A DNA stretch of 32,000 bases from Geotalea uraniireducens Rf4 (GCF_000016745.1 NC_009483.1:4740001-4772000); one strand, 5' to 3'; shown: positions 2,493-31,861, counted from the first letter of the stretch. Notes: generated by a model not told the origin, from the letters alone. A program made the numbers and translations.

Positions 2493-2496
2493 CCCG

Positions 2497-3588: not shown

Positions 3589-4223
3589 GCCTGCCGGTCG
3601 TGATACTGGGCGCCGGCGGCCACGCACGGGTGCTTCTGGAGGCCCTGCGCTCGGCGTCCCGCCAGGTGGCGGGAATCGTCGATGCCGATCCGGCAAGGAT
3701 CGGAGAAACCGTCATGGGGGTACTGGTCATCGGCACGGACGAAAAGGTTTTTGACTTTCGGACCAACGAGATTGAGCTCGTGAACGGCATCGGTTCGGTG
3801 GCCTCGACGGCAAAAAGGGTGGAACTCTTCGCGGCGTTCAAGGCCCACGGCTACCGGTTTGCCACTGTCGTGCACCCCTCGGCGGTCATTGCTTCGGACG
3901 CGGAACTGGCGGAAGGGGCACAGATCATGGCAGGGGCCGTCATCCAGGCGGGAGCGAGCATCGGCATGAATTCCATCGTCAACACACGCGCCGCCGTCGA
4001 TCACGACTGCCGCATCGGCGCAGGCGTCCACATCGCGCCGGGAGTCACCCTTTCCGGGGACGTCCGGGTGGACGACGACGTACACATCGGCACCGGTGCA
4101 ACAGTGATCCAGGGAGTACATATTTCCGGAAAAAGCGTCGTCGGCGCAGGGTCGGTCGTCCTGCGCGACGTTCCAGGAGGGGTCACGGTCTACGGGGTCC
4201 CCGCACGTGAGGCACGAAAATGA
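3585..4223 (+). CDS. NeuD/PglD-family hexapeptide-repeat sugar N-acetyltransferase (LegH-like)
   Basis: The ATG overlaps the neuB stop (ATGA at 3585-3588). N-terminal Rossmann-like VVILGAGGHARVLLEAL is followed by left-handed beta-helix repeats (IGAGVHIAPGVTLSGDVRVDDDVHIGTGATVIQGVHI). Confidence 0.8.
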   Translation: MSLPVVILGAGGHARVLLEALRSASRQVAGIVDADPARIGETVMGVLVIGTDEKVFDFRTNEIELVNGIGSVASTAKRVELFAAFKAHGYRFATVVHPSAVIASDAELAEGAQIMAGAVIQAGASIGMNSIVNTRAAVDHDCRIGAGVHIAPGVTLSGDVRVDDDVHIGTGATVIQGVHISGKSVVGAGSVVLRDVPGGVTVYGVPAREARK

Positions 4224-5954: not shown

Positions 5955-5979
5955 AGTAACCAATGACTGGAGACACGCC

Positions 5980-7368
5980 ATGCGCATTCTGCTTGTAGTT
6001 TACGACAACGATTCATACATCCACTGGTTTCCCCAGGGGCTGGCCTATATCGCGAGCGTGCTCAGGAACGAAGGGCACGAGGTCGCCATCTACAACCAGG
6101 ACCTGCACCACTATCCCGACGAACACCTGACCGCCTTTCTTGACGCCAACCCGTACGACATGGTGGGTTTCAGCTTCATCTCCGGCTACTACCAGTACAA
6201 GAAGGCCCTCGCCGTTTCAGCAGCGATCAACCGGGCGAAACGACGCCCCCTCTACGTCATCGGAGGGCACGGCCCCTCTCCCGAGCCGGAATTCTTCATG
6301 AAAAAGACCGGCGCGGACGTCACCGTCATCGGCGAAGGCGAAGAGACCATCGTCGAGCTTTTGCGCGCCGTCGGCAACCATGCCCCATTTGCCGGCATCA
6401 AGGGGATCGCCTACCGGGACGGGGACCGGATCGCGATCAACGAGCGCCGCCCGCTGATCGCGGATATCGACACCATCCCCTTCCCGGCCTACGACCTCTT
6501 CCCCATCGAATATTACCGGCTCCTGCGGATGCCCCACGCCGGCAACGCCGACTTCGTCATGCCGGTCCTCTCCGGCAGAGGATGCCCCTTTACCTGCAAC
6601 TTCTGCTACCGGCTGGACGAAGGGTTCCGCCCGCGGAGCAACGCGAGCATCATCGAAGAGATCAGGATGCTGAAACGCAACTACGGCATCACCTACATCG
6701 CCTTTTCCGACGAGCTCCTCATGTCGTCCGAAGCCAGGGTGACGGCGCTCTGCGAGGATTTCATCCGTGAAAACCTGGATATAAAGTGGGACTGCAACGG
6801 CCGGCTCAACTACGCCAAACCCGAGCTTTTGGCCCTGATGAAGCGTGCCGGCTGCGTATTCATCAACTACGGCATCGAGGCCTTCGACGACGTTATTCTG
6901 AAAAACATGAACAAGGCCCTCACCACAAGCCAGATCGTCCGGGGAATCGAGGCGACCCTCGCAGTGGGCATCAGTCCCGGTTTCAACATCATCTTCGGCA
7001 ATATCGGCGAGTCCAGGGAATCGCTGCGGAAAGGGGTCGACTTCCTGCTGAAGTACGACGACGGCGCTCAGATGAGGACCATCCGCCCCGTCACCCCCTA
7101 CCCCGGCGCGCCGCTCTACTACCACGCTATCGAGAAGGGGCTCGTCGGGGACTGCGAGGATTTCTACGCCAACAAGCACCTGAACTCGGACCTCCTCGCC
7201 GTCAATTTCACGGAGCTCTCCGACGAGGAATTCCACGCGGCCCTTTTCGAGGCCAACTCGGTCCTTCTCGACAACTACTTCACCAGGAAGCGGACCTCAA
7301 CCATCGAACAGGCAAGAACGCTCTACATGGAGAGGGACAGCTCGTTCAGGGGTTTCAGACAGAGTTGA
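5980..7368 (+). CDS. Cobalamin(B12)-binding-domain radical SAM enzyme (class B rSAM, possible methyltransferase)
   Basis: Track ORF 5887..7368. I prefer ATG 5980 (MRILLVVYDND...), which is preceded by tGGAGa. The N-terminal Rossmann-like B12-binding region (MVGFSFISGYY...YVIGGHGPS) is followed by SGRGCPFTCNFCY (CxxxCxxC radical SAM cluster). Confidence 0.8.
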   Translation: MRILLVVYDNDSYIHWFPQGLAYIASVLRNEGHEVAIYNQDLHHYPDEHLTAFLDANPYDMVGFSFISGYYQYKKALAVSAAINRAKRRPLYVIGGHGPSPEPEFFMKKTGADVTVIGEGEETIVELLRAVGNHAPFAGIKGIAYRDGDRIAINERRPLIADIDTIPFPAYDLFPIEYYRLLRMPHAGNADFVMPVLSGRGCPFTCNFCYRLDEGFRPRSNASIIEEIRMLKRNYGITYIAFSDELLMSSEARVTALCEDFIRENLDIKWDCNGRLNYAKPELLALMKRAGCVFINYGIEAFDDVILKNMNKALTTSQIVRGIEATLAVGISPGFNIIFGNIGESRESLRKGVDFLLKYDDGAQMRTIRPVTPYPGAPLYYHAIEKGLVGDCEDFYANKHLNSDLLAVNFTELSDEEFHAALFEANSVLLDNYFTRKRTSTIEQARTLYMERDSSFRGFRQS

Positions 7369-7389
7369 ATTCACAGACACGAGGCAGCT

Positions 7390-9915
7390 ATGAACCACCT
7401 TGAAGAGACTATCGAACCTTTCCTCACCAATTCCTTCGGCGACCGCTATCTTTACTCTGTCAACCGGAACGCCTTCAACGATCTTGGTTCGGAGACCCTT
7501 TACGAAAACACCTATGGGGAAAAGCTTTTCGCGGAATATAAGCTCAACATCGTCCTGGGAACAGATTCAGGGTTACTGATAAAGCACGTCCTTGAGAAAG
7601 GGATCCCGGCAGGTTCCCGCTACATTTTCGTCGAACTGGATGGCGTCGTGGCCGCATTGCGGGCGGAAGGGTGCCTTGACGACCTCCCCTCCACAATAGC
7701 AATCGTGTCGCCGGAAGAGTGGCTAAGCCGCGCTACGGAATTCAACCTTGAAAATTACCTCTACCTCAATGCGCTCCTCTTTCACGAATCGGTCGGCGCC
7801 GCCGACGCCCACCGCACGGAGTATCTGGAATGGGCCTGGAACATAAACCTCAAGCTGCAGGAACTGTTTTACCATGTATGGGTTTCGCTGGGTGATTCCG
7901 TTTTCACCTTCAGGCAGTTCGAGAATCTCGCCGAAAACCGGCTCCATTTCTCCGAATATTTCCTGGACGCCTTTGAGGGGAAAACCGCCATCATCCTTGC
8001 CGGCGGCCCGTCCCTCAAGGAGGCGCTGCCTTGGGTCAAGGCTAACCGCGACCGGCTCGTCATCATTGCGGTCTCGCGTGTCTGCCGTCAACTTATCGAG
8101 GCGGGAGTAGCCCCTCACATCATCATCTCAGTTGACCCCCATAAGGTCAGCTTCGACGTAAGTAAAGAGATGTTCCATTTCGCAGACGAGGCCGTGTTTC
8201 TGAACTTCTTCCACGTCACGCCGCTTCTGCTCGGACAGTGGCAAGGCAGGCATCTGTTCGCTGGCCCCTTCCTTCCGTGGGAGTCCGCGTTAAACAAGGA
8301 CAACCTTGCCTACACCGGCCCGACAGTAGGAAACACCTCGATTTCCATGGCGATCCACATGGGGTTTTCGACCATCATCCTGGCTGGGGTTGATCTTTGC
8401 CATTCGCGGGAAGGACATACCCACGCCGAGGGAAGCAATGAAAGCAAGATCGGCCCCAAGCTTGGGCACGTAAGCGAAAAAGTCGAGACCTACGGCGGCT
8501 GGCAGGCGGAAACCATCCAAGCCTTCCAGATTGCCATCCCGATGATGTCCCATGCGGCGGCAACCGCATCCGAAAAAGGGTGCAAGCTCTATAACTGTGC
8601 CCTCGGGGCGGCCAAGGTATCAGGGGTAGAATATCGTGCCATTGAAGAGTTTCAGCTCCCCCCCTTGGAGCAACCCATCGGCGACACCATACAGGCGCTC
8701 ATTCCGAAAGAAACTTCCAAGGCCAGGCTTTGGCACTACCGACGGATAAAAAAGGAGATCGAGACCGCCCGGCGCAAGTTTCAGGAGATCCTTAGCCTGG
8801 TGGAGGAAGCTATCGACTGCTGCGACGGTCTCTTCGGCCGCAATGGGAAGAAGGCTGATTTCCGCCACAAAATCAGGATGGACAAGATAGAGCGGAAGCT
8901 CGACAACAGCTACCGTAAGTATTCGTACATGGTCAAGGTATTTGGCATCAAGGGGCTCGTGGAGATTGCCAAGGCCCCTGAGCTCGCAGACGACTGGACC
9001 GACGAACAGATAGAGAGCACGACGCGCAATTATTACGAGACTTACGAGGTAAGCACAAAATACCTGATAGGCATCATGGACAGCATGTTGCAAAGGATCG
9101 ATTCCCGGATTGAAGAGGAAGTGCCTCATCCTGACTTTGCGCGTCTTTTCCAGCAATGGGAGAAAGACGGCCAGCCTGGCAGGGTGCTGGGCTGGAAGCG
9201 CCACCACCCCGACTGGCTGAATCTCATGACCGAAAGCGAACGGGACCAAGCAGATCAATTGGAAGTGAGCTTCGAGAAGATTCTGGCTGAAGAACAAACC
9301 TCCCAGTTGGCATCCATCCAGAAAACCCACGACATCTCATCGGTTCTTAGAAAAGCACGGCTGCTCTTCAGGCGCGGCGAAGAAGCTGAATTGGAGATTC
9401 TGGCAAAGGGGTTGGCAACTCACCAGGAGGGGGAAAAGGCGTCCGGCTACCTTGATCTTGTACAGGGGTTCATTGCGGAACTTCAGGGAAAGCTCGACGT
9501 GGCCCTGGAACATTACCATCATTTGGTTGTCGACCTGCCCCATGCAGCCACGGAGGACGCCCTAAAGCAGATCGCTACCCTTTCCATCTCCGCAAAGGAT
9601 ATCGACAATGCCGTTCTCGCTGTGGAATGTCTGGTAGGCCTGTCCCCTGCGTACCTTCCAGCCTACGCAGACCTGCTCAAAGCTATCGGCAGGTACGAAG
9701 AGTCCTTCGATGCTTACAACCGCTACTTGGCGCTGGCCCCTGATGATGTCAGCGTAATGATGAAACTAGGGATCTTCTGCAAGGAGGCGGGGCTTGGCGA
9801 GACCGCCGTGGAACTTTTCCAGAGGGTCCTGGTCAATAATCCTGACATCAGCGCGGCCAAAACCTTTCTTGCCGAATTAAACCTCGCCGGGCACTGCACC
9901 AGCATGATGAACTGA
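7390..9915 (+). CDS. maf: Motility accessory factor (Maf)/DUF115 protein with C-terminal helical + TPR region; putative flagellin nonulosonic-acid glycosyltransferase
   Basis: The core KTAIILAGGPSLKEALPWVKANRDRLVIIAVSRVCRQLIEAGVAPHIIISVDPH ... GPTVGNTSISMAIHMGFSTIILAGVDL matches the DUF115/Maf pattern. The C-terminal ~150 aa show TPR-like repeats (AYADLLKAIGRYEESFDAYNRYLALAPDD, MMKLGIFCKEAGLGETAVELFQRVLVNNPD). Confidence 0.8.
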   Translation: MNHLEETIEPFLTNSFGDRYLYSVNRNAFNDLGSETLYENTYGEKLFAEYKLNIVLGTDSGLLIKHVLEKGIPAGSRYIFVELDGVVAALRAEGCLDDLPSTIAIVSPEEWLSRATEFNLENYLYLNALLFHESVGAADAHRTEYLEWAWNINLKLQELFYHVWVSLGDSVFTFRQFENLAENRLHFSEYFLDAFEGKTAIILAGGPSLKEALPWVKANRDRLVIIAVSRVCRQLIEAGVAPHIIISVDPHKVSFDVSKEMFHFADEAVFLNFFHVTPLLLGQWQGRHLFAGPFLPWESALNKDNLAYTGPTVGNTSISMAIHMGFSTIILAGVDLCHSREGHTHAEGSNESKIGPKLGHVSEKVETYGGWQAETIQAFQIAIPMMSHAAATASEKGCKLYNCALGAAKVSGVEYRAIEEFQLPPLEQPIGDTIQALIPKETSKARLWHYRRIKKEIETARRKFQEILSLVEEAIDCCDGLFGRNGKKADFRHKIRMDKIERKLDNSYRKYSYMVKVFGIKGLVEIAKAPELADDWTDEQIESTTRNYYETYEVSTKYLIGIMDSMLQRIDSRIEEEVPHPDFARLFQQWEKDGQPGRVLGWKRHHPDWLNLMTESERDQADQLEVSFEKILAEEQTSQLASIQKTHDISSVLRKARLLFRRGEEAELEILAKGLATHQEGEKASGYLDLVQGFIAELQGKLDVALEHYHHLVVDLPHAATEDALKQIATLSISAKDIDNAVLAVECLVGLSPAYLPAYADLLKAIGRYEESFDAYNRYLALAPDDVSVMMKLGIFCKEAGLGETAVELFQRVLVNNPDISAAKTFLAELNLAGHCTSMMN

Positions 9916-12719: not shown

Positions 12720-12735
12720 AGCAATTAGGGTGCCA
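12720..12735 (-). promoter_or_regulatory. Sigma54 (-24/-12) promoter candidate for fliD-fliS
   Basis: The minus strand reads TGGCAC-CCTAA-TTGCT, which matches TGGCAC-N5-TTGCW completely. It lies 26-41 nt upstream of the fliD ATG. Confidence 0.55.
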
Positions 12736-13897: not shown

Positions 13898-13924
13898 TTA
13901 TCGGAGGCGCCGGCAGAAACTTTA
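13898..13924 (-). promoter_or_regulatory. Sigma28 (FliA) promoter of fliC
   Basis: The minus strand reads TAAAGTTT-CTGCCGGCGCC-TCCGATAA against the consensus TAAAGTTT-N11-GCCGATAA. That is 8/8 and 7/8 matches with exact spacing. Confidence 0.85.
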
Positions 13925-18004: not shown

Positions 18005-18367
18005 TCAGTAAACATTTTTTAAACCGCCATTTTCAGGTTCAACTTTTTTGTCCTGCCGTACCAGTTGCTTTTCGATCATCCGGGCCAACCCCACGCCGCC
18101 GCTGTCGACAACACCCTTTGCATATTCCTGATCCAGAAGAGACTGGTAAACTTCTTCACCATGCCCCCCCCCGGTCAGTTTGTCCTTGCCGACCGTTTCC
18201 CGCATGGACTTGAGCATCATGCCGACAAACATGACTTCAAACTCGCGGGCCACTTTTTTGGCAGCCGCCTTCTCCTTTTCGGCAGATTGCGGCTGAAACT
18301 TTAGCGATTGCCGTAATTTCACATCCTCAACAGGCATGGCCGTCACCGGCGTTGTGCTAACATCCAT
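18005..18367 (-). CDS. flgJ: Rod-binding protein (FlgJ N-terminal domain only; no muramidase domain)
   Basis: Track ORF 18005..18415. The first 16 codons are read-through of the heptad array, so I prefer ATG 18367 (MDVSTTPV...). FEVMFVGMMLKSMRETV...EVYQSLLDQEYAK is the rod-binding motif. Confidence 0.75.
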   Translation of the reverse strand: MDVSTTPVTAMPVEDVKLRQSLKFQPQSAEKEKAAAKKVAREFEVMFVGMMLKSMRETVGKDKLTGGGHGEEVYQSLLDQEYAKGVVDSGGVGLARMIEKQLVRQDKKVEPENGGLKNVY

Positions 18368-18376
18368 ATAATTCCC

Positions 18377-18459
18377 CCACCGACCACCGACCACCGACCA
18401 CCGACCACCGACCACCGACCACCGTCTGCCGTCTGCCGTCTGCCGTCTGCCGTCTGCCG
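18377..18459. repeat. Heptanucleotide tandem arrays (CCACCGA)x7 then (TCTGCCG)x5, filling the flgI-flgJ spacer
   Basis: Read directly: 18377-18424 holds 6 perfect copies plus one 6/7 copy, and 18425-18459 holds 5 perfect copies. In mRNA sense this is (CGGCAGA)5(CGGUGGU)7. Confidence 0.95.
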
Positions 18460-18465
18460 ACCGCC

Positions 18466-19572
18466 CTAAATGACCATCAATTCGGCATTCAGCGCACCCG
18501 CCGCCTTGATCGCCTGCATGATGCCGATCAGGTCGCGGGGGGTTACGCCCAGGGCATTGAGCGCCCGTACCACGTCGCCGATGTTCGCACCCTGCTGCAA
18601 AATCGCCAGGCTGCCCCGGTCCTCGGTTACCTTGATCGATGTACGCGGCACCACTTTTGTTTCGCCCGTGCTGCTAAACGGTGCGGGCTGGGAAACCCGC
18701 GGCGTTTCCTTGACGTAGAGGGTGAGGTTGCCGTGGGAAACCGCCACCGTGGAGATACGCACGTTCTCGCCGATGACTATCGTGCCGGTCCGTTCATTGA
18801 GGACCACCCTGGCCATGACATCCGGGGTCACCTCAAGCCGCTCCAGCGCCGCCACGAACTCCACCGTTTTTCCCTGATAGTCATCGGGAATGGCGAGTTG
18901 CACGGAACCGGGATCGGTCAGGGACGCCACCGTCATCTTGAATTTATTGTTGATGACCGCCGCCACCCGTGACGCTGTAGTGAAGTCCGGCTGGTGAAGA
19001 TTCAGCCTCAGCTGGCTTCGACCAGCCAGTACATTGGGGAGCTCCCGCTCGACAAGGGCTCCGCCCGGCACCCGGCCGGCGGTCGGATGATTCTTCTGCA
19101 CCGATGCCGCCTGGCCGCCATAGGAGAAAGAGTTGGTAAGCACCCCTCCCTGTGCCACCGCATAGATTTGGCTGTCGGCACCTTTCAACGGTGTCATCAG
19201 GAGCGTTCCGCCTGCCAGACTCTTGGAGTCTCCAACCGATGAAACGAGCACGTCGAGACTGTTCCCCTGCTTGGCAAACGGCGGAAGCGCCGCCGTCACC
19301 ATCACGGCAGCCACGTTTTTGACGGTGATGTCGGCACGATTGATCGTTATCCCCATCCGTTCCAGGGTGTTCACCAGGGACTGGACCGGAAACTTGGTCT
19401 GGTCGCTGTCGCCGGTGCCGTTCAGGCCGACGACGAGCCCGTAACCGATGAGCTGGTTCTCCCGCACCCCGTCGAACGCGGCAATATCCTTGATGCGAAC
19501 CGCCAGGGCAAACTGCGGGAGGGCCAGGAGCAGAAACGCAGCAAAAACTATTTTTCGAAAAATACTATTCAT
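18466..19572 (-). CDS. flgI: Flagellar P-ring protein FlgI
   Basis: Signal peptide MNSIFRKIVFAAFLLLALPQFALA, then VRIKDIAAFDGVRENQLIGYGLVVGLNGTGD. The track starts at GTG 19575; ATG 19572 is equally possible. Confidence 0.95.
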   Translation of the reverse strand: MNSIFRKIVFAAFLLLALPQFALAVRIKDIAAFDGVRENQLIGYGLVVGLNGTGDSDQTKFPVQSLVNTLERMGITINRADITVKNVAAVMVTAALPPFAKQGNSLDVLVSSVGDSKSLAGGTLLMTPLKGADSQIYAVAQGGVLTNSFSYGGQAASVQKNHPTAGRVPGGALVERELPNVLAGRSQLRLNLHQPDFTTASRVAAVINNKFKMTVASLTDPGSVQLAIPDDYQGKTVEFVAALERLEVTPDVMARVVLNERTGTIVIGENVRISTVAVSHGNLTLYVKETPRVSQPAPFSSTGETKVVPRTSIKVTEDRGSLAILQQGANIGDVVRALNALGVTPRDLIGIMQAIKAAGALNAELMVI

Positions 19573-19635
19573 CACCCTTCACCCTTCACCCTTCACCCTT
19601 CACCCTTCCGACCACCGACCACCGACCACCGACCG
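19573..19635. repeat. Heptanucleotide tandem arrays (CACCCTT)x5 then (CCGACCA)x4, in the flgH-flgI spacer and abutting the flgI start
   Basis: Read directly. In mRNA sense this is (UGGUCGG)4(AAGGGUG)5-AUG. CCGACCA is the same cyclic unit, in the same orientation, as the 18377-18424 array. Confidence 0.95.
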
Positions 19636-19657
19636 CCTTCAAACCATCGACCGCCAT

Positions 19658-20347
19658 TCAAAACGGCCAGATGGTGTCGAATAACCCCATCAGCCAGCCC
19701 GGTTTCTGCCTGTCGCTGATGATCCCCTTGCCGCTGTAGTTGATCCTCGCATCGGCGACATAGATTGAGTTGACCACGTTATCGGAACTTATGTCCCGGG
19801 GCCGGACCGTGCCGGTCAGGACAATGACCTGATCCTCATTGTTGACCTTGACGTTGCGCTTTCCTTCGATGAGGAGGTTGCCGTTGCCAAGCACATCAAC
19901 CACCTTGGCGGTAATGGTTGCATTCAGGTTCTCTTGCCTGGTCGTTTTCCCGCTGCCGTCGAACTTTGAATCAAAACTGGCGCTGATCAGCTTATTCAGA
20001 TCCATCCAGTTTTTTATCCCGGTCACGTTTGTCTCAAGCCCCAGCAGATTGGGAATACCGGCAGATATGCTGCTGCCGCGCGTAGTACCGGTGGTCGCCT
20101 GCTTGCTGGCGCTCGACTGCTCATTGATCACCACCGTTACGGTGTCACCGCGCTTGCGTGCCTTGAAATCATCGGCAAAACCGCTGGAGGAATCCTGCCA
20201 GATGGAGCCGTTGGCATAGTTCGGCCGCGACGGCTGCAACTGTTCGTCGAATGCCGGTGTCCTCACCTCGGCCGTCCGGATCGAACAGGCGGCGAGGAGC
20301 AGCAAGACGGGGAGCGACATCATTTTTATGCATGTTATGGTTTTCAT
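19658..20347 (-). CDS. flgH: Flagellar L-ring lipoprotein FlgH
   Basis: Lipobox LLLAAC, plus DFKARKRGDTVTVVINEQSSASKQ and LLIEGKRNVKVNNEDQVIVLTGTVRPRDI. Confidence 0.9.
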   Translation of the reverse strand: MKTITCIKMMSLPVLLLLAACSIRTAEVRTPAFDEQLQPSRPNYANGSIWQDSSSGFADDFKARKRGDTVTVVINEQSSASKQATTGTTRGSSISAGIPNLLGLETNVTGIKNWMDLNKLISASFDSKFDGSGKTTRQENLNATITAKVVDVLGNGNLLIEGKRNVKVNNEDQVIVLTGTVRPRDISSDNVVNSIYVADARINYSGKGIISDRQKPGWLMGLFDTIWPF

Positions 20348-20356
20348 ATTCTTCGC

Positions 20357-21073
20357 CTAAAAATCCACCTTGACGGTTGTGGCATCGACCACGCGGGCGG
20401 CAACCTCCTTCTGTGAAGCGAGATTCTGCACCATGACCGTATCCCCTTCCGCCCCCGAGTTTCTTGCCCTGCCGGCGGCGGTTATACGCAGTGCGTCGTT
20501 CTCGACGACGATGGTAACCAGTTGACCGCTCTTGACCAATGAAATTTTCTCCAGGTAATCGGCCCGGATCGGGTTATTGCCCCGGATTGCCGTTCGCACC
20601 CTTTTTCCTACTGCCTCTTCTGCGGTGCGACAGGTCTTTCCCTGCATCTTCGCCAGGTCCCTCTTCTGCACAGCGATGTCACCGTTTCCGATGACCTCGC
20701 CCCGCTCCAGGGGACGCACCGCCACTACCACATCCGCCAGCGCTTCAACCTCGACCTTGACGGAAATGTTCCGTTCGACCCGGTCGTTGACCCTGACGAT
20801 GAGTGCAAGGTTGGCATTTCCCCATCCTTCCCAACGGTCCGGGGCCACCACCTCATAACTGATCGTGCCGGCAGGAAGGGCCATGTCTCCGCTGTAGCCG
20901 ATCTTTTTGACGCTGACATCCAACCCCAGGTTCTCGCTCTTTTGCCGGAGATGGTCGTCCAATACCCGACGGATGTCCGCCTCCTTCACCACTATCTGTC
21001 CCGCCGCGCCGGCGGAGGCGATGAATGCCAGCGCCAGCACCAGCAGCATTCCTGTCTGTAAAATACATTTCAT
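20357..21073 (-). CDS. flgA: Flagellar P-ring assembly chaperone FlgA
   Basis: Signal peptide, a SAF-like domain, and C-terminal GQLVTIVVENDALRITAAGRARNSGAEGDTVMVQNLASQKEVAARV. Confidence 0.85.
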   Translation of the reverse strand: MKCILQTGMLLVLALAFIASAGAAGQIVVKEADIRRVLDDHLRQKSENLGLDVSVKKIGYSGDMALPAGTISYEVVAPDRWEGWGNANLALIVRVNDRVERNISVKVEVEALADVVVAVRPLERGEVIGNGDIAVQKRDLAKMQGKTCRTAEEAVGKRVRTAIRGNNPIRADYLEKISLVKSGQLVTIVVENDALRITAAGRARNSGAEGDTVMVQNLASQKEVAARVVDATTVKVDF

Positions 21074-21098
21074 CGGCTTCCCCGATCTTCACTCTTCG

Positions 21099-21887
21099 CT
21101 ATCGTCTCAGGTTGTTGGCCGTCTGGAGCATCTCATCCGCTGCCTGCACAGCCTTGGAGTTTATCTCGTAGGCCCTCTGACCGACGATCATGTTGACCAT
21201 TTCTTCCATGACGCTCACGTTGCTCATCTCCAGGAATCCCTGGCTGAGGGTGCCGATACCGTTTTGACCGGATGTGCCGGTTGTAGCGGCCCCCGAAGAA
21301 TCTGTCGGCTGATAGAGATTATGTCCGAGGCTTGAGAGGCCTGCGGGATTGGAGAAGGTTGCTAGCTGGATGGTGCCGACGCTGGTCGGCGTGTTCTGCC
21401 CCGACTGCATCACGGATACGGTTCCGTCATTCCCCACGGTGATCTTGGTGGCGTTGTTCGGAATTATCACCTCGGGGAGGAGCGGATACCCGTCGGAGTT
21501 CACCATCCGCCCCTGGCTGTCTTTTTTGAAAGAACCGGCCCGGGAATAATTGGTGGAACCGTCCGGCATCTGGATCTGGAAGAACCCCTCCCCCTCGATG
21601 GCCAGGTCCATCTCGTTGCCGGTCTGGGTGATGTTGCCGGCGGTAAAGATCTTGCTGACCGCGGCAGCCTTGGAGCCAAGTCCCACCTGGATGCCGGTCG
21701 GTATCTGGGTGGCGTTTGTGGACGGAGCACCACTGGTCTTCAGGTTCTGGTACATGAGATCCTGGAAATCGGCACGGCTTTTCTTAAAGCCGGTTGTATT
21801 GACGTTGGCGAGATTGTTGGCTACCACATCGATGTTGAGTTGTTGAGCCTGCATACCTGATGCAGCAGTCCATAATGCCCTTATCAT
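21099..21887 (-). CDS. flgG: Flagellar distal rod protein FlgG
   Basis: [47 protein letters not shown] ... [29 protein letters not shown]. Confidence 0.95.
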
Positions 21888-21907
21888 TTCTTACCCCCTT
21901 TAAGATC

Positions 21908-22034
21908 GTTCTATGTTCTATGTTCTACGTTCCAGGTTCAAAGTTCAAAGTTCAAAGTTCAAAGTTCGAAGTTCGAAGTTCGAAGTTCGAAGTTCGAAGT
22001 TCGAAGTTCAAAAGCTAAATCTTAGAACTTAGAA
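21908..22034. repeat. Heptanucleotide tandem array GTTCNNN x15 plus (CTTAGAA)x2, filling the flgF-flgG spacer
   Basis: Read directly. 21908-22012 holds GTTCTATx2, GTTCTAC, GTTCCAG, GTTCAAAx4, GTTCGAAx6 and GTTCAAA. 22021-22034 holds CTTAGAAx2. Confidence 0.95.
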
Positions 22035-22038
22035 CCGT

Positions 22039-22773
22039 CTACAGTTTTCCCAGCTCGTTGGCCGCCTTTGCCGCGACGTCGTCGTAACTCCGTATCACCT
22101 TCTGGCAGGAGTCGAAATATCGGCTCGTTTCTATCATCCGCGCCATTTCCGTGACGACATTGACATTCGAATCCTCAAGGAATCCCTGCTTTACCGACGC
22201 AGTGGTAACGGCTTGTGGCGCAACCTGGGGATCAGCCGGGATAAACAGGCCGTTGCCGATCTTCTCCAGCGCATACGGCTTGGGGAAATCAACGACCTCC
22301 AGGGTCCCCACGGATACGCCATCCACAAGAACCCCTCCCTTGCCGTTTATATCCACTCTGCCGCCGGTAATGGTGATCGGCCCGCGCCCCTGGACCTCAT
22401 AACCGTCGCCCGTCACGAGCTTACCGGAGGCATCTCTCTGAAAACTCCCCTGCCTGGTATACGCCTTTCCCTGGGGGGTGTTCACCACGAAAAAACCATC
22501 GCCGTCCAGCGCCACATCCAACGTATTGCCGGTCTGCTTGAGCGGTCCCGCTGAATAGTTGGTGAAAAACTTCTCGCCGCTGAAAACCGGCAAATCCGTC
22601 AAGTTCCCCGCCGTCAGGGTCGGGTTTTTTGTATTGGCCAGCACGCTCTCGAACTGGAGGCGGTCGCCTTTAAAGCCGGGAGTGTTGGCGTTGGCCAGGT
22701 TGTTCGATATGACTTCCAGCCGCTGCATTGCCGCAAGGCTGCCGGAAAGCGCCGCATACAAACCGCTGTTCAT
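22039..22773 (-). CDS. flgF: Flagellar proximal rod protein FlgF
   Basis: MNSGLYAALSGSLAAMQRLEVISNNLANANTPGFKGDRLQFESV ... GFLEDSNVNVVTEMARMIETSRYFDS. It sits directly upstream of flgG. Confidence 0.85.
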   Translation of the reverse strand: MNSGLYAALSGSLAAMQRLEVISNNLANANTPGFKGDRLQFESVLANTKNPTLTAGNLTDLPVFSGEKFFTNYSAGPLKQTGNTLDVALDGDGFFVVNTPQGKAYTRQGSFQRDASGKLVTGDGYEVQGRGPITITGGRVDINGKGGVLVDGVSVGTLEVVDFPKPYALEKIGNGLFIPADPQVAPQAVTTASVKQGFLEDSNVNVVTEMARMIETSRYFDSCQKVIRSYDDVAAKAANELGKL

Positions 22774-22807
22774 AAGGGACTCCTCTTAACTGTTTCAGGT
22801 TTGATAC

Positions 22808-23563
22808 TCAAGGCTTATGGAGCTTCATCCTGCCGCGCAGGCGGAGAAGCGCCTGACTGTGCAACTGTGAAATCCGGGATTCGGTCAGGCTCAATACGGA
22901 GCCGATCTCCTTCAGATTCAACTCTTCATAGTAATAGAGAGTTATGACGATGCGCTCCTTTTCCGGCAGACCGTCAATCGCCTCCGCCAGATTTTCAACC
23001 GTTTGCCGCGCTATGAGCTGATTCTGGGGGCTCTCGACACCCTTGTCCTCCAGTACGTCCAGAAGACCCAACGGGCTGCCGTCTTCATCCATCCAGGCAT
23101 CATCGAGGCTCACAAAGGAGAGAAAATGGATCTCCTCGAGAAGGTGGAAATATCCCTCCAGCTCCAGCCCCATGGCGGCAGCGACCTCTTCGCTCGTGGG
23201 ATTTCTGCCGAGGCGCTGCTCCAGGCATGAAAATTCCCGTTCGAGCCTTTTGAATTTGTCCCGGAGGGAGCGGGTAAGCCAGTCCTGTGAACGGAGCTCA
23301 TCCATTATGGTCCCCCTGATCCGCTGCTCGGCAAACGTCTTGAACATAACCCCCCGCGAAGGATCAAAGCGCTCCGCCGCAGAGATCAGCCCGATGACGG
23401 CAGCGCTCCGCAGGTCGTCCCGGTCCAGATGGGGAGGAAGTGCCGACGCTATCCTGTCCACAAGGAATTTAACCAGGGGAAGATGGGAAACAACCAGTTC
23501 ATCCCTGTCGGGAATCACGGCGCGCTGGGCCTCTTGTTCATAAGCCTTAAGAAGACAATTCAT
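22808..23563 (-). CDS. fliA: Flagellar sigma factor FliA (sigma28)
   Basis: Sigma70-family regions 2-4 are present: VVSHLPLVKFLVDRI, FKTFAEQRIRGTIMDELR, LNLKEIGSVLSLTESRISQLHSQALLRLR. The ATG overlaps the flhG stop (ATGA). Confidence 0.9.
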   Translation of the reverse strand: MNCLLKAYEQEAQRAVIPDRDELVVSHLPLVKFLVDRIASALPPHLDRDDLRSAAVIGLISAAERFDPSRGVMFKTFAEQRIRGTIMDELRSQDWLTRSLRDKFKRLEREFSCLEQRLGRNPTSEEVAAAMGLELEGYFHLLEEIHFLSFVSLDDAWMDEDGSPLGLLDVLEDKGVESPQNQLIARQTVENLAEAIDGLPEKERIVITLYYYEELNLKEIGSVLSLTESRISQLHSQALLRLRGRMKLHKP

Positions 23564-24492
23564 ATACTCTCCAATCCTGCGGCGGTCGGGAAATTTTTCC
23601 GGGAGAAAAACTGAATGTTTCCCTTCAGTCTGTTTTCGCCGCCGCTTGCCATAATCTTCCGTGCCAGGGCAGTGAAGCAGCGTGATGCTTTTGCGTTGGG
23701 ATAGAGCTGGCAGACCGGCTTCTGCTGCCTGACAGACTCCCCGACAAGGTCATCGCGCAACACGCACCCCATGTAATCCAAAGAAATATTGAGGAAGCGA
23801 TCTGAGACATTGAAAAGCTTTTCAAAGACGTTGATCGCTTCTTTCTGGTCTCTGGCCATGTTGACCAGGACCTTGAAATGCCGTTCACCGTAACGGGTTG
23901 ACAACAGCTTGATAAGGGCATAGACGTCCGTGATGGAGGTAGGTTCGGGGGAAACGACCACCAGGATTTCACGGGCAGCGACATTGAAATAGGTAACGTT
24001 TTCCGAGATGCCCGCTTCGGTATCGATAATGAAGACATCAAAATTCTCTTCCAGGCGATCCAGCTCATCCAGCAATCTAAGGCGCTCGGGTGTGCCGAGG
24101 CTTGTGTACTCCTGTACCCCCAGACCTGCGGGAACCACCTTGATGCCTCCCGGGGCGGTAATGATGATCTCATCGAGCCGCTTTTCTCCCGAAAGGACAT
24201 GGTTCATGGTAAATTGTGGTCGCAGGCCGAGCAGTATGTCGATGTTGCCGATACCCAGGTCCGCATCGATCACCAGGACCTTTTTACCCATATTGGCCAG
24301 TGTCACGGCCAGATTGACCACCACGTTACTCTTGCCGACCCCCCCCTTGCCGCTGGTGACGGAAATCACACGAATATCGTTGCGCGAGTTTATCCTGCCC
24401 GCGTACAGGCCGGCATCACGTCGGGTCATGTTGACAGAACCGGCCAGCTGCCGCAGGGTATCAGCCTGGTCCCGGCATTTCGTCGAGGTCAT
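23560..24492 (-). CDS. flhG: MinD/ParA-type ATPase FlhG (flagellar number regulator)
   Basis: The real protein starts at ATG 24492 (MTSTKCRDQ...), which overlaps the flhF stop (ATGA). It has the deviant Walker A box VTSGKGGVGKSNVVVNLA. The upstream part of track ORF 23560..25113 is an out-of-frame shadow over flhF. Confidence 0.85.
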   Translation of the reverse strand: MTSTKCRDQADTLRQLAGSVNMTRRDAGLYAGRINSRNDIRVISVTSGKGGVGKSNVVVNLAVTLANMGKKVLVIDADLGIGNIDILLGLRPQFTMNHVLSGEKRLDEIIITAPGGIKVVPAGLGVQEYTSLGTPERLRLLDELDRLEENFDVFIIDTEAGISENVTYFNVAAREILVVVSPEPTSITDVYALIKLLSTRYGERHFKVLVNMARDQKEAINVFEKLFNVSDRFLNISLDYMGCVLRDDLVGESVRQQKPVCQLYPNAKASRCFTALARKIMASGGENRLKGNIQFFSRKNFPTAAGLESI

Positions 24493-25832
24493 CTTTCGCT
24501 CTCCCGCAGAACCAGGTTTGCCAATTTCCGCGCAGTCGCCACTTCGATATCCTCCGGCACCTTCTGGCCGGTGGTAAAATAAGAAAGGGGATATTTGTTG
24601 CGCACCTGCGCATTGACGATGCAGCCGTAGCTTTCGCTTTCGTCCAGCTTGGTGAACAAGAGCCGGGTAATGGGAAGGACACTGAAATTGGCCACGATGT
24701 CGTTCATTTCCCTGTCCCTGGTGGTGGCGGAAATGCAGAGGTAGGTTTCGATGGCGGGGTGCGATTCCAGGTAGACCTTCAATTCTTCCAGTTTCTCCCG
24801 ATCCTTGGGACTTCTCCCGGCCGTGTCGATGAGAATCAGGTCCTTGTCCGCATGCTTTGCCAGGACAGTTTCCAGCTCCTTTGCCGTTGCCGCCACCTCC
24901 AGCGGCACATCCATAATTTTCGAATAGGTCTTGAGCTGCTCGATGGCCCCCACCCTGAAGTTGTCGGTGGTCACCATGGCTACCCGTGCACCCCTGTTGA
25001 GGGCATACATGGCGGCCAGCTTGGCGATGGTGGTGGTCTTGCCCACGCCGGTCGGGCCGACGATGGCCATGATCCGCGCCCCGTTCTTCTTCAGGCGAAG
25101 GGGACCGGAACATTTGATGACGTTGGCAAAGGCATCGACCAGCCGCTCCCTGAGCGCCTCGATCTCTTCGCCCAGCTCGGCCGCAGGCCTGATCAGCTCA
25201 AGGAGGGAATGAATCCCGTCTGCCCCCACCTCTTCCGAGCGAAGTTCCTTTGCAAGCAACTCCAGCGCCTCCTCAGACAGGTCAAAATCATCTGACAGAT
25301 TTTTGACAGAAGTTTCCGGAGCGTTCACTTCGGGAAAGGCGACCGGTTTGGATGCTTTCTGCTCACGGGCGGCAACCGCGTTCAACAGCAGCTTCTTGAT
25401 CTCCTCCATCTCCTCCTTGGCAAAGGTTCTGGGAGTGGACTCCTTCTCCGGTTGAAACGTCCTCACCTCTTCTGCCGGCTTTTCCATCCGGAAAACAGGG
25501 GGGGCACTTTTCTCCGCATCCTTCCTGGCAAGCGTCTCGACCCGTTCCTTCAGTTCCCTCAGTTCCCGGGCCAGGGGAGCCAGCATGGAGTTCTGAAACT
25601 CCTCCTTCGTGCTGAGTTCCCGCTCTGCCCTCTCCCGGTACGGGTTCGGGCGTGACGGCGCCTTCTGCTCCAAAGCCGCAGTCACCGCAAAGTAAGGCTT
25701 GGAAAAGAGCCCCATGATGCCTTTGCGCCGTTCCTTTTTTGAAGAAAGGATCATGGCGTCCAAACCCATTTCGGCCTTAACCATCTTCAAGGCCTCCGAC
25801 ATATCAGCCGCTTGAAATGTTTTAACTAGCAT
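24489..25832 (-). CDS. flhF: SRP-type GTPase FlhF (flagellar placement)
   Basis: MLVKTFQAADMSEALKMVKAEMGLDAMILSSKK N-domain. G-domain motifs GPTGVGKTTTIAKLAA and DTAGRS. It overlaps the flhA end by 11 nt. Confidence 0.9.
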   Translation of the reverse strand: MLVKTFQAADMSEALKMVKAEMGLDAMILSSKKERRKGIMGLFSKPYFAVTAALEQKAPSRPNPYRERAERELSTKEEFQNSMLAPLARELRELKERVETLARKDAEKSAPPVFRMEKPAEEVRTFQPEKESTPRTFAKEEMEEIKKLLLNAVAAREQKASKPVAFPEVNAPETSVKNLSDDFDLSEEALELLAKELRSEEVGADGIHSLLELIRPAAELGEEIEALRERLVDAFANVIKCSGPLRLKKNGARIMAIVGPTGVGKTTTIAKLAAMYALNRGARVAMVTTDNFRVGAIEQLKTYSKIMDVPLEVAATAKELETVLAKHADKDLILIDTAGRSPKDREKLEELKVYLESHPAIETYLCISATTRDREMNDIVANFSVLPITRLLFTKLDESESYGCIVNAQVRNKYPLSYFTTGQKVPEDIEVATARKLANLVLRESER

Positions 25833-27957: not shown

Positions 27958-27973
27958 TGCAACCGGTGTGCCA
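27958..27973 (-). promoter_or_regulatory. Sigma54 (-24/-12) promoter of the flhA operon
   Basis: The minus strand reads TGGCAC-ACCGG-TTGCA, a full match to TGGCAC-N5-TTGCW. It lies 52-67 nt upstream of the flhA ATG. Confidence 0.8.
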
Positions 27974-29488: not shown

Positions 29489-29632
29489 ACGAGGATAAAG
29501 GAACGAGGTCCGAGGGTTATCCTTTATCCTTTGGCCTCGTTCCTTTTTCCTCGATCCTTTTTCCTCGATCCTTTTTCCTCGATCCTTTTTCCTCGTTCCT
29601 TTTTCCTCGCGCCTTTATCCTCGTCGTGCGTC
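29489..29632. repeat. Composite repeat: 14-nt tandem array (CCTCGWTCCTTTTT, about 6 copies at 29535-29618) bracketed by an inverted repeat
   Basis: Read directly. The left arm ACGAGGATAAAGGAACGAGG (29489-29508) is complementary 18/20 to both 29535-29554 and 29605-29624. There is also a local perfect 10-bp hairpin, GGATAAAGGA (29493-29502) with TCCTTTATCC (29520-29529). Confidence 0.9.
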
Positions 29633-29771
29633 CATCCTTTTTTCCCTTCATTGATCAGGCAGCAATCACCACAATCACACAATCGCTTTAATGAAGAGTG
29701 TTTCCGGTGGCCATCTCGGTCAAATTCTGCTATGAATGGCCACATCGTCAACCTATAAACCCGTGGAAACA

Positions 29772-31109
29772 ATGACCAATCTTCAAGAAACCGAAACCGT
29801 TGAGCTGAAGAAATCCACCTCCGAGCTGAAGGAGGGGGTGATCTCCATTGTGGCTATGTTGAACAAGCACCAGCGGGGAGAAGTCTGGTTCGGCATCAGG
29901 AACGACGGCGCAGTAGTCGGTCAGCAGGTTTCCGAAAAGACGCTCCGCGACATCTCCAAGGCGATTGCCGACCACGTTGAGCCGAAAATCTATCCCGTTA
30001 TCGAGCAGTCTGCGGTCGGTTCCAGGCAGTGCATCAGGGTGCAGGTCGAAGGCAAGGAGTATCCTTATTATGCCTATGGCCGGGCGTACATCCGGGTCGG
30101 AGACGAAGACCGGCAGCTGAGCGCCAAGGAGCTTGAAAACCTGATCCTGGGGAAAAACCGTGACCGGCTCCGCTGGGATACGGAGGTCTGCGACAAGGCA
30201 ACCATTGACGATATCGGGCCGGGCAAGCTGAAGTCATTCCTGAAGCTATGCGGGCTCAAGTTCGATACCATCCCCAATTCCCTCGAAAAGCTGAATCTCA
30301 TCAAGGCCGGCAGGCTCCTGAATGCCGCTGTGCTCTGTTTTGCCCGCAAGCCGGAGAAGTTCTTTCCCAACGCCAGGCTGCGTTGTGCCGTGTTCGGGAC
30401 ACTTGACACCACAGTTACCATTGGCATGAAAGACTATTATGGCGATGTCTTTGCCCTGATCAACAAGGCTGAGGAATACATCCTTGAGCATATCAACATC
30501 GGCATGCGGCTGGAGGGGATGCTGCGGGTGGATGTTCCCGAAATCGACCCTGAAGCGTTTCGTGAAGGGATTATCAATGCCTTCTGTCACCGGGACTATC
30601 GGGAGTATGATTCTGTCAACATTGCCATCTTCAAGGATCGGGTGGAGATCAGAAGCCCCGGCCTGCTTTATGGCGGGCTTACCATCGACACTATCAGAAA
30701 GAAGATGGTATCTGCCCGGCGTAATGAGCTGTTGGCGGAGCTGTTCCAGCGCAGTCATCGCATCGAAAAATGGGGCCGAGGCATCAAGATGATCCTGGAG
30801 CGGGAACCGGCTACAGAGTTCGAAGAAGTGGGAACGGTGCAGTTTGTTGCTACGTTCAAAAGAAAGAATGTGGAGGCTTTTCCGTCCATCAGTGTCGGTG
30901 AAACTACCCAGAAAACTACCCAGAAAACTACCCAGAAAATTCTTGAACTGATTGTCAGCAATCCAAGAATCAGCCGTATCGAACTGGCAGCAGAAATCGG
31001 AATTACTGCGGATGGCGTAAAGTATCAGTTGGACAAATTAAGGAAGCAAGGGATTCTAAAACGTATCGGGCCTGATAAGGGCGGGTATTGGGAGATCGTG
31101 AAAGAGTGA
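29772..31109 (+). CDS. AlbA_2 (Schlafen-like) DNA-binding domain + HATPase_c_4-like domain + C-terminal winged-HTH protein (often annotated RecG-like ATP-binding protein / transcriptional regulator)
   Basis: Track ORF 29736..31109. ATG 29772 (MTNLQETETVELKKSTSELKEG...) fits the usual family N-terminus. GEVWFGIRNDGAVVG and AFCHRDY...SPGLLYGGLT...RRNELLAELFQRSHRIEKWGRGI are present. The C-terminal ILELIVSNPRISRIELAAEIGITADGVKYQLDKLRKQGILKRIG is a wHTH. Confidence 0.7.
   Translation: MTNLQETETVELKKSTSELKEGVISIVAMLNKHQRGEVWFGIRNDGAVVGQQVSEKTLRDISKAIADHVEPKIYPVIEQSAVGSRQCIRVQVEGKEYPYYAYGRAYIRVGDEDRQLSAKELENLILGKNRDRLRWDTEVCDKATIDDIGPGKLKSFLKLCGLKFDTIPNSLEKLNLIKAGRLLNAAVLCFARKPEKFFPNARLRCAVFGTLDTTVTIGMKDYYGDVFALINKAEEYILEHINIGMRLEGMLRVDVPEIDPEAFREGIINAFCHRDYREYDSVNIAIFKDRVEIRSPGLLYGGLTIDTIRKKMVSARRNELLAELFQRSHRIEKWGRGIKMILEREPATEFEEVGTVQFVATFKRKNVEAFPSISVGETTQKTTQKTTQKILELIVSNPRISRIELAAEIGITADGVKYQLDKLRKQGILKRIGPDKGGYWEIVKE
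30903..30938 (+). repeat. In-frame 12-nt tandem repeat (ACTACCCAGAAA)x3 encoding TTQK x3 in the linker before the wHTH
   Basis: Read directly from DNA and from the translation (GETTQKTTQKTTQKIL). Confidence 0.9.
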
Positions 31110-31300
31110 TGGTGCCCCTGTCTCCGTTTCCCGAATTTGACGGAAACGATGCAAAAGTGCTGATTGGGATGGATGGGGAGTGAGGGGGAGTGATGGATGC
31201 ATGTTCTGCCGAAATGGAAAACGGTGATATCCATTCACGGCTGTTTTGGCACCGTACTTCATTTACAAATCTGTTGTCGCGTAAAATAGAGGTCTGATAG

Positions 31301-31861
31301 ATGATTCAAAAAGAGTTAGAAGTCATTTTAAGCCGATACACTCAGGCCCGCATGGGAGAACCATTTAACGGCGAGCATGAAATATTTTCAAATTTTGAAG
31401 CAATACGAGAGGCGTTAGCGCAATCAGAAGCAGTTCAAAGTCGGCCACATCTCCGTGTGAAATACAGCGCAGGACAAGGTAATTGGGCAAGAGTGCCATG
31501 GATTGCATTTCTTGATTCAAGAGAAACAACAACAACCCAAAAGGGAGTTTATTGCGTTTATCTATTTCGACAAGATATGTCTGGTGTTTATATTACCTTT
31601 AATCAGGGTGTTACAGAGCTGATTAGGCAAAATGGAAGACCACGAGCTCATCAGGAATTACAAAAACGTGCTGAAGCAATACATCAATATTGCTCAGGTC
31701 TTCCTTCCAAAGGTTTTTCGCTTATAAAAGGAATAGACCTTCGAGCAGATGCTGGCTTAGGTGCTGACTATGAGTACTCAACTATTGCTTATAAATTTTA
31801 CGAGGCCGGCAATATGGCTCCTCGACGAATTGAGTGGGTAGCCTGGGCCGGGTTGATGTAA
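31301..31861 (+). pseudogene. N-terminal (DUF3578/MrcB-N-like) fragment of a McrB-type restriction GTPase, apparently truncated
   Basis: KYSAGQGNWARVPWIAFLDSRETTTTQKGVYCVYLFRQDMSGVYITFNQG matches, from memory, the McrB-like N-terminal DNA-reader domain. No AAA/GTPase domain follows. The last ~15 codons (MAPRRIEWVAWAGLM*) look like read-through into inserted DNA. The region is visibly AT-richer than the rest of the window. Confidence 0.55.

Follow-up and report, generated by a model that had tools for sequence, protein, structure and literature searches.

Why should the junction between two rod genes of a flagellar operon be filled with tandem units of seven nucleotides, and does such a repeat matter to the genes on either side? 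The question is raised by a 32,000-nt stretch of the Geotalea uraniireducens Rf4 genome (NC_009483.1, 4740001-4772000; hereafter the window, in which positions are counted from the first nucleotide), where most of the spacer between flgF and flgG consists of heptads. The origin and purpose of bacterial heptanucleotide repeats remain puzzling despite their abundance, and the only mechanistic study on such repeats that we found deals with a human pathogen (hmw, 2025). As for the flgF-flgG array, we are confident that it is a slippage-type heptamer repeat array of a known class. Our preferred overall reading, which we hold with moderate confidence, is that of a slippage-generated, hypervariable heptanucleotide simple sequence repeat (SSR), or variable-number tandem repeat (VNTR), that acts at most as an expression-tuning RNA hairpin.

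Results

Heptads between flgF and flgG

When read on the plus strand from 21908, the array (Table 1) is composed of (GTTCTAT)2, GTTCTAC, GTTCCAG, (GTTCAAA)4, (GTTCGAA)6, and GTTCAAA, and AGCTAAAT then separates this GTTCNNN block from the two CTTAGAA units. In the mRNA sense the heptads are TTTGAAC, (TTCGAAC)6, (TTTGAAC)4, CTGGAAC, GTAGAAC, and (ATAGAAC)2, and the layout of the spacer, namely (GTTCTAA)2, a linker, and (NNNGAAC)15, is a quasi-palindrome. The array is non-coding, being located between the stop codon of flgF (22039-22041) and the ATG of flgG (21887-21885).

A preliminary description of this DNA had counted 15 GTTCNNN and two CTTAGAA units that together fill most of the 151-nt spacer, and the count was confirmed by the sequence itself, by Tandem Repeats Finder (TRF), and by a regular-expression search. 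TRF reported a main array at 21936-22009 (period 7, 10.6 copies, 98% match, score 120) with flanking arrays at 21908-21932 (3.6 copies) and 22021-22035 (2.1 copies), and the regular-expression search on the reverse complement recovered 15 NNNGAAC units. The self-identity of the spacer was 0.75 at a lag of 7 vs about 0.15-0.3 at other lags, and runs of at least three GTTCNNN units numbered 0.0 in shuffled sequence (about 1.1 Mb). The heptad array in the flgF-flgG spacer is real and well beyond chance.

Given that a 105-nt array with a 42-nt perfect core exceeds common k-mers, the array or its length might be thought a product of short-read misassembly; indeed, the sole independent assembly of the same strain (L102) starts within the TTCGAAC block, and the number of units in the six-unit core rests on one assembly. 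Such an artefact is, however, hardly credible: L102 agrees with the window base for base across the shared 84 nt of the array, the spacer architecture is found with other copy numbers in independent ENA, JGI, and Logan assemblies, and isolates, namely Geotalea sp. SG265 and Geomonas spp., have homologous arrays in their genomes.

Table 1. Positions of the repeat arrays and related features in the window
Feature	Position	Strand	Remarks
flgF-flgG intercistronic spacer	21888-22038	-	151 nt, between the flgF and flgG open reading frames (Pfam)
15 contiguous heptads	21908-22012	-	GTTCNNN on the plus strand, NNNGAAC in mRNA sense
2 CTTAGAA units (plus strand)	22021-22034		
mRNA-sense 5' arm, (GTTCTAA)2 + G	22021-22035	-	
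20-nt linker	21888-21907	-	predicted unpaired, with the flgG Shine-Dalgarno sequence GATCTTAAAGGGGGTAAGAA, then ATG
flgF, proximal rod protein	22039-22773	-	Pfam Flg_bb_rod, LlgE_F_G_D1, Flg_bbr_C
flgG, distal rod protein	21099-21887	-	Pfam; identical protein in 9 public contigs
Perfect sigma-54 consensus, TGGCAC-N5-TTGCA	27958-27973	-	upstream of flhA
flgH-flgI spacer array	19572-19634	-	mRNA sense (TGGTCGG)3-4 then (AGGGTGA)5, abuts the flgI ATG
flgI-flgJ spacer array	18377-18459	-	mRNA sense (CAGACGG)5 (TGGTCGG)6
Period-7/14 array, (ATCCTTTTTCCTCG)7	29517-29623	+	outside the flagellar operon, just after an Omp85-family gene
Inverted purine-rich partner of the (ATCCTTTTTCCTCG)7 array	29489-29507	+	

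Predicted folding of the spacer

It had also been proposed that the six-unit core folds back on itself, TTCGAA being self-complementary. In our predictions this fold-back holds and extends to the entire spacer, as RNA as well as single-stranded DNA. The RNA of the whole spacer is predicted by RNAfold to form one interrupted hairpin of -43.7 kcal/mol (z = -2.6), the stem of which is made of 6-bp helices with single mismatches between them. The 5' arm would pair with the (ATAGAAC) units at 21908-21921, GTTCTA being complementary to TAGAAC, and the 15-heptad block would give both the 3' arm and, with its TTCGAA core, the apex. The predicted hairpin extends from 3 nt past the flgF stop codon to 20 nt short of the flgG ATG and leaves the Shine-Dalgarno sequence free. 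As single-stranded DNA, furthermore, the spacer has a predicted stability of -26.9 kcal/mol (z = -6.2), and through a fold this stable slippage could plausibly proceed. G runs are missing from the array, which therefore does not have the four or more short-looped G3 tracts of a G-quadruplex.

Predictions for the RNA of other spacers ranged widely. The corresponding values were -39 kcal/mol (z = -2.7) and -14.2 kcal/mol (z = +0.3) for the alleles of two close strains, B and C (see below), -34.4 kcal/mol (z = -2.1) for a Geotalea spacer (L003), -64.1 kcal/mol (z = -5.6) and -63.5 kcal/mol (z = -5.1) for two Geomonas spacers (L052 and L048), and -64.6 kcal/mol (z = -8.3) for the spacer of locus L082; the spacer between fliA and flgF in L020 reached -41.7 kcal/mol (z = -8.0). 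The hairpins regularly begin 2-4 nt past the upstream stop codon, and those of the GTTC type, once folded, would leave about 18-37 nt unpaired, which is close to the median of 31.5 nt in array-free spacers.

Alleles among close strains

By look-ups of the exact FlgG protein and of FlgA, nine same-species loci with a FlgG identical to that of the window were gathered. The window and L102 (100% identical over 2384 nt) represent strain A, L081, L097, L098, L100, and L101 represent strain B, and L096 and L099 represent strain C, the three strains being about 97-98% identical to each other in nucleotide sequence. Their flgF-flgG spacers are 151 nt (A), 101 nt (B), and 86 nt (C) in length. Allele B reads GTTCCAA GTTCTAA (GTTCTAC)2 ... 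TTTGAAC (TTCGAAC)2 TTTGAAC CTGGAAC GTAGAAC ATAGAAC, and allele C has a degenerate 5' arm followed by (TTCGAAC)3 GTAGAAC ATAGAAC; whole-heptad differences between the strains are thus seen in every sub-block. The spacers of flgH-flgI and flgI-flgJ likewise vary by whole units. Between flgH and flgI, for example, strain A has 3-4 TGGTCGG and 5 AGGGTGA units, strain B has 6 YGGTCGG and 2 AGGGTGA units (L081 6440-6502), and strain C has (TGGTGGA)7; the spacer is nonetheless 85 nt long in A and B despite the different make-up.

Over 10.7 kb of alignment, most gaps are located within or beside the three array spacers. Because the gaps are so concentrated and the differences are of whole units, the arrays evolve much faster than their flanks, and the strain-to-strain comparison of copy number proposed in the preliminary description gave 7-nt-step differences among A, B, and C. 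A further suggestion, namely that the main blocks of the three arrays have lengths that are multiples of 21, failed: the sister blocks are 31+49, 63, and 92 nt in strain B and 40, 53, and 72 nt in strain C, and we reject the rule.

Copy-number differences in 7-nt steps at all three spacers also invite comparison with a phase-variation (contingency) locus, in which selection would favor rapid and reversible changes in the number of heptads that switch or grade expression of the rod genes within populations, as in hmw1A/hmw2A, where a transcribed heptamer repeat is known on the length of which expression depends (PMC12721329, PMC2651432). A number of metagenome contigs stop inside the arrays, which is compatible with heterogeneity within a sample, but k-mer assembly would be expected to break contigs at repeats anyway. 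Very rapid switching is, moreover, argued against by clone B, the arrays of which do not differ among five assemblies, each from a different sample (0-1 mismatches over as much as 13 kb), and the organism is a free-living groundwater/sediment bacterium and not a host-adapted pathogen. We consider phase variation quite unlikely; the arrays are fast-changing at the scale of strain divergence, without visible rapid switching.

Public contigs often begin or end inside or beside heptad arrays (L098-L102, L025, L036, L042, and L049). Since the arrays break short-read assemblies, copy numbers assembled from metagenomes may be unreliable.

Period and unit across relatives

Our comparison set comprised 95 loci: 80 were flgG loci taken from contigs at one genome per species, and the other 15 were flgA loci of metagenome origin. 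Among the arrays with at least four copies, period 7 accounted for 38 of 49 and all other periods together for 11. Period-7 arrays with at least three copies were found between flgF and flgG in 17/82 loci, between flgH and flgI in 11/88, and between flgI and flgJ in 4/72; elsewhere they were scarce (fliA-flgF, 2/80; flgA-flgH, 2/92) or absent (flgG-flgA, 0/92; flhG-fliA, 0/74). The flgF-flgG spacer spans 10-258 nt across these relatives, the long ones holding heptads or hairpins resembling repetitive extragenic palindromes (REPs), and at least six unit families occupy it depending on the lineage (GTTC/GAAC, GGATTA, AAAAGTG, GGCAAAA, AAAACCT, and GAAGTAT). What the arrays have in common is therefore the period rather than a shared sequence, as had been supposed at the outset; period 7 dominates the set, and the units vary by lineage and even by strain. 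This pattern fits the slippage bias proposed in the literature for 7-nt units (PMC4679880, PMC4692102).

The GTTC/GAAC family is of particular relevance here. The order of a 5' GTTCNNN array followed by an NNNGAAC array is found in this species, in Geotalea, Geomonas, and Geomesophilobacter, and in metagenome loci (at least four genera), and is kept in the flgF-flgG spacer across genera in which FlgG is 71-86% identical. The flgF-flgG hairpin is present in G. oryzae, G. paludis, and G. edaphica. Wherever found, this inverted arrangement is confined to flagellar spacers, and about 1.1 Mb of sequence contained no dispersed GTTC-type arrays beyond such spacers.

Other lineages fill the same junction differently. 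GC-rich, REP-like palindromes, GTAGGGGCG...CGCCCCTAC, are present in the flgF-flgG spacer of L001, L011, and L017, which are other Geobacteraceae, and this junction seems able to host hairpin elements that differ in origin. In L033-L037, which represent another Geobacteraceae clade, the spacer has GGATTA-type heptads (AGGATTA/CGGATTA) with a GGA core like that of CsrA binding motifs, and csrA-fliW is located within the same gene cluster. As candidate CsrA sites, GGA motifs fit the GGATTA-type arrays of those other lineages only and were rejected for the array of the window.

Strand composition

On the sense strand, the intercistronic arrays contain 31% G and 17% C on average, compared with 28% G and 27% C in array-free spacers and 29% G and 30% C in coding sequence. 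There are 26 arrays with more G than C and 10 with more C than G; several of the 10 are the partners of inverted pairs, and these counts ignore shared ancestry. The array at 29517-29623, situated at an apparent operon end, is C/T-rich instead. The low C content of the arrays is compatible with a filter that would act against loading of Rho on long untranslated stretches.

We also considered G-U asymmetry as a signal of selection at the RNA level and did not retain it. The sense strand is predicted to be more stable in 8 of 11 flgF-flgG hairpins by a few kcal/mol, which is a weak asymmetry, and a strong one is seen only at the G-rich flgI-flgJ arrays. In the window, the (CAGACGG)5 and (TGGTCGG)6 blocks of flgI-flgJ would pair in the sense RNA only, via G-U pairs, with a predicted -41.6 kcal/mol (z = -4.5) for the sense vs -14.0 kcal/mol for the antisense strand; in the G-rich flgI-flgJ arrays, base composition by itself could account for the asymmetry.

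Operon context and other arrays of the window

The minus strand of the window encodes flhA, flhF, flhG, fliA, flgF, flgG, flgA, flgH, flgI, and flgJ and, further, flgM, flgN, flgK, flgL, csrA, fliW, a flagellin gene, fliD, and fliS; the gene order is of the Geobacteraceae type, and the closest genomes are those of Geobacteraceae. The sigma-54 site upstream of flhA is likely the promoter of the operon that contains the arrays. A scan of 18300-22900 gave no sigma-70-like promoter and no terminator-like site in the three array spacers, and consensus searches gave no sigma-54 or sigma-28 site within them; an internal promoter in the array spacers was dropped accordingly. From the lack of promoter- and terminator-like sites in the spacers, together with the sigma-54 site at flhA, we infer that the arrays form part of a polycistronic transcript. 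That the flgF-flgG array is transcribed and also folds as modeled above appears reasonably probable. An Rfam scan of the whole 32,000-nt window matched no family.

The preliminary description had noted two further flagellar intercistronic arrays of period 7, at 19572-19634 and 18377-18459, and both are real. Its view that the three arrays have unrelated units needs a correction: the flgF-flgG unit, GTTCNNN, does differ, but flgH-flgI and flgI-flgJ share CCGACCA (TGGTCGG in the mRNA). Between flgH and flgI, (AGGGTGA)5 supplies Shine-Dalgarno-like sequence abutting the flgI ATG and, in sequence terms, matches a G3N4 quadruplex motif. Including the array after the Omp85-family gene, heptad-type arrays occupy 4 of the 11 longer spacers of the window with at least five units (GTTCNNN, TGGTCGG, CAGACGG, AGGGTGA, and ATCCTTT/TTCCTCG). 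The region 29489-29623 is predicted to form a hairpin of -51.4 kcal/mol (z = -6.9) that begins ~3 nt past the stop codon of the Omp85-family gene; at the counterpart of this region, strain C has degenerate remnants only and strain B has an ordinary terminator-like hairpin.

The diversity of units bears on the proposal that the heptads are DNA-level iterons, i.e., that they are bound cooperatively by a small protein as an operator or an architectural site. Contiguous, gapless heptads in direct and then inverted orientation do resemble the sites of omega (PMC9499535), but the four arrays use at least five units, which also change between strains, and this does not fit a single sequence-specific protein; the arrays, furthermore, have no overlapping promoter-like site, and no ribbon-helix-helix candidate is encoded among the proteins of the window examined. 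Iterons are thus highly improbable. For the same reason, namely that the units differ between arrays and strains, we reject one trans-acting RNA- or DNA-binding factor serving all arrays.

Several other features of the window were noticed. A perfect sigma-54 consensus is located upstream of fliD on the minus strand (12720-12735), and a sigma-28-like site with 1 mismatch lies upstream of the flagellin gene, also on the minus strand (13898-13924). A mechanical open reading frame (ORF) of 517 aa (23560-25113) runs into flhF and is an over-extension, because public calls for the identical region give FlhG of 310 aa and FlhF of 431 aa. On the plus strand, the block at 1-9915 adjoining the flagellar genes encodes NeuB, a PglD-like acetyltransferase, CMP-sugar synthetase-type enzymes, a B12-binding radical SAM protein, and an MptE-like (Maf-type) protein, and is probably a flagellin glycosylation island. 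At the 5' end of flgJ (18260-18367), FlgJ of the window departs strongly from that of strains B and C over its first ~35 residues and is nearly identical over the remainder, and the N-terminal version in the window resembles that of the more distant L049 lineage; this divergence may represent a recombination tract or a mutation hot spot beside the array. Adjoining the (ATCCTTTTTCCTCG)7 array, a strain-variable island (29736-31861) with a defence-like look encodes a protein with Schlafen/AlbA_2, HATPase_c_4, and winged helix-turn-helix domains and an MrcB_N-domain protein, and its counterpart in strains B and C carries different genes (YhcG/DUF1016 and NUDIX, or others). Inside the Schlafen/AlbA_2 gene, a perfect 12-nt repeat, AAACTACCCAGA x3.2 (30901-30939), encodes in frame (TTQK)3 immediately ahead of the winged helix-turn-helix domain.

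Discussion

The pattern of units suggests how the flgF-flgG array could have arisen and what it might do. Slipped-strand mispairing would add or remove units in 7-nt steps, and the sub-blocks (ATAGAAC, GTAGAAC, CTGGAAC, TTTGAAC, and TTCGAAC) would result when a unit acquires a point mutation and is then re-expanded. Opposed (GTTCNNN)n and (NNNGAAC)n arrays make the spacer quasi-palindromic, and its fold-back as a single strand probably aids slippage. In the polycistronic mRNA, the array would fold as one long interrupted hairpin, which would loop out a 128-nt insert between the flgF stop codon and flgG and keep the Shine-Dalgarno sequence free. The most likely effect would then be to tune the FlgF/FlgG ratio modestly and in a length-dependent manner by way of the intercistronic RNA hairpin, for which processing at an RNase III-type site, blockage of exonucleases, and interference with termination at the flgF stop codon are candidate routes; REP elements and the heptamer hairpin in the 5' untranslated region of hmw in Haemophilus influenzae are comparable in their workings. 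We put this forward tentatively; a measurable effect in cis on the expression of flgF/flgG is possible but somewhat doubtful.

Alternatively, the array may be a neutral by-product, that is, debris of a 7-nt slippage bias left where the operon tolerates untranslated bases, with neither the hairpin nor the copy number having any effect. A number of observations favor this alternative or otherwise weigh against an expression-tuning hairpin. The flgF-flgG spacer is merely 10-30 nt in many relatives, where the array is absent, and its unit families are unrelated to each other; other species have REP-like hairpins there or nothing. Within the genus Geomonas, L047 and L050 have 46-nt spacers that keep two NNNGAAC units and a shared GGCCGT...AAGGAG tail, the whole hairpin having been deleted. 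Across the relatives, position and period recur and unit sequence does not, and the array is dispensable, so that any function would be non-essential. Many arrays of other lineages are, furthermore, not self-complementary (e.g., (AAAACCT)18.7 in L039), and the hairpin is therefore not common to all heptad arrays. Even within the species, the strain C allele is barely structured and folds no better than shuffled sequence (z = +0.3), the z score of the spacer in the window is merely -2.6, and the arrays of clone B have stayed identical across samples.

Some properties nonetheless weigh against debris. The sense strand of the arrays is poor in C (17%; array-free spacers have 27% and coding sequence has 30%) with G exceeding C in 26 arrays and the reverse in 10, the GTTC/GAAC inverted arrays persist across genera with only 71-86% identity in FlgG, the hairpins consistently start 2-4 nt past the upstream stop codon, and the flgH-flgI spacer is constant at 85 nt in two strains that have different units. 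The asymmetry, persistence, stop-codon spacing, and constant length suggest selective filtering at least. We regard a purely neutral array, the main rival reading, as somewhat unlikely and prefer the slippage-generated repeat that is at most an expression-tuning hairpin.

A stronger proposal would be that heptamer-array hairpins are selected, widespread, transcribed, and self-renewing cis-elements in free-living bacteria. We consider this unlikely. The flagellum requires its rod and ring proteins in unequal amounts, and if the proposal is true, RNA folding, perhaps with processing by RNase III as in hmw, would set the relative output of the rod and ring cistrons, the same folding also driving expansion and contraction of the arrays. 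Only C-poor or self-paired arrays would survive in operons because loading of Rho would be avoided, and the GTTC/GAAC hairpin would be an ancient conserved regulator of flgF/flgG in Geobacteraceae.

The locus is a ready-made natural series from an environmental lineage, in which the same junctions are occupied by many units, with at least three alleles within a species and with the hairpin present or absent. This makes testable whether array length is related to the ratio of the neighboring flagellar proteins, whether RNA folding and RNase III have a role outside Haemophilus, and whether arrays are selectively filtered by strand composition. In practical terms, short-read assemblies break at the arrays, and gene callers can be misled on start codons.

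Comparison with known systems

REPs are units of about 35 nt with a conserved consensus and many dispersed copies, and REPs and bacterial interspersed mosaic elements (BIMEs) form extragenic hairpins a few nt past a stop codon, within an operon or at its end. The predicted flgF-flgG hairpin resembles them in being placed a few nt past a stop codon and inside an operon, but it is a tandem-repeat hairpin of variable length without a fixed consensus. No conserved and dispersed consensus of the REP type was found, GTTC-type arrays being present only in flagellar spacers of the about 1.1 Mb.

Two other systems with contiguous heptads differ more clearly. The ribbon-helix-helix protein omega (ParB) of pSM19035 binds contiguous direct and inverted WATCACW heptads (PMC9499535), and the arrays described here share with those iterons the contiguous 7-bp units in direct and inverted orientation. 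Omega iterons, however, have one WATCACW consensus, overlap a promoter, and possess a cognate ribbon-helix-helix protein, none of which holds here; the Pfam hits of the neighboring genes examined contain no ribbon-helix-helix family, the scan having covered part of the small ORFs. In Geobacter metallireducens, multicopy elements of four or five tandem heptanucleotides (GGACCGG; MTYCTGA) have been noted as candidate regulatory elements (PMC2700814). These belong to the same family, Geobacteraceae, but are fixed at 4-5 units and dispersed with a conserved unit, whereas the arrays here are long and variable in length with a locus-specific sequence.

The closest class is that of the long heptanucleotide SSRs. 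Heptanucleotides are described as the most abundant class of long SSR in many bacterial genomes, for which a polymerase-slippage bias toward 7-nt units has been proposed (Mrazek 2007, as cited in PMC4679880 and PMC4692102). Known examples are the short tandemly repeated repetitive (STRR) sequences of cyanobacteria, GGGAATC in Xanthomonas, GGGGAYT in Nostoc, and TAACTGA in Beggiatoaceae (PMC4679880, PMC4692102). The Xanthomonas arrays have the same gene neighbors in two species, vary in length and sequence, and are sometimes inverted pairs (PMC4692102); the Beggiatoaceae arrays stand directly upstream of start codons, and close strains of Cyanothece differ by indels in 7-nt steps (PMC4679880). 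Likewise, the arrays of the window are head-to-tail, intergenic 7-nt units with a preference for period 7 and whole-unit polymorphism among strains, which have the same gene neighbors in relatives with differing length and sequence and occur occasionally as inverted pairs. The units here (TTCGAAC, TTTGAAC, ATAGAAC, and GTTCTAA) do not match the STRR, TAACTGA, or GGGAATC heptamers, and such long arrays are not described for Geobacteraceae in the heptamer literature cited here. Unlike the known heptanucleotide SSRs, furthermore, the array here is intercistronic inside one flagellar operon with no dominant genome-wide motif, and that of flgF-flgG is a quasi-palindrome built from two opposed arrays.

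In architecture, the nearest counterpart is hmw of H. influenzae, in which the transcribed (ATCTTTC)n repeat makes up one arm of a long imperfect hairpin and undergoes processing by RNase III, with expression inversely related to the number of repeats (PMC12721329, PMC2651432). Both systems have a heptamer repeat upstream of a gene, in an untranslated region (probably transcribed in our case), as an arm of a hairpin (predicted in our case) and with a strain-variable copy number. The partner arm in hmw is, however, a non-repeat G-rich stretch, whereas both arms are heptad arrays in flgF-flgG; the hmw repeat lies between a promoter and the first gene, whereas the flgF-flgG array lies between two cistrons; and cleavage by RNase III and the effect of length have been demonstrated for hmw, whereas the flgF-flgG hairpin is a prediction from sequence. 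In conclusion, the flgF-flgG array belongs to a known class, the heptameric repeats, with an hmw-like hairpin architecture placed between cistrons, and is not a new kind of system.

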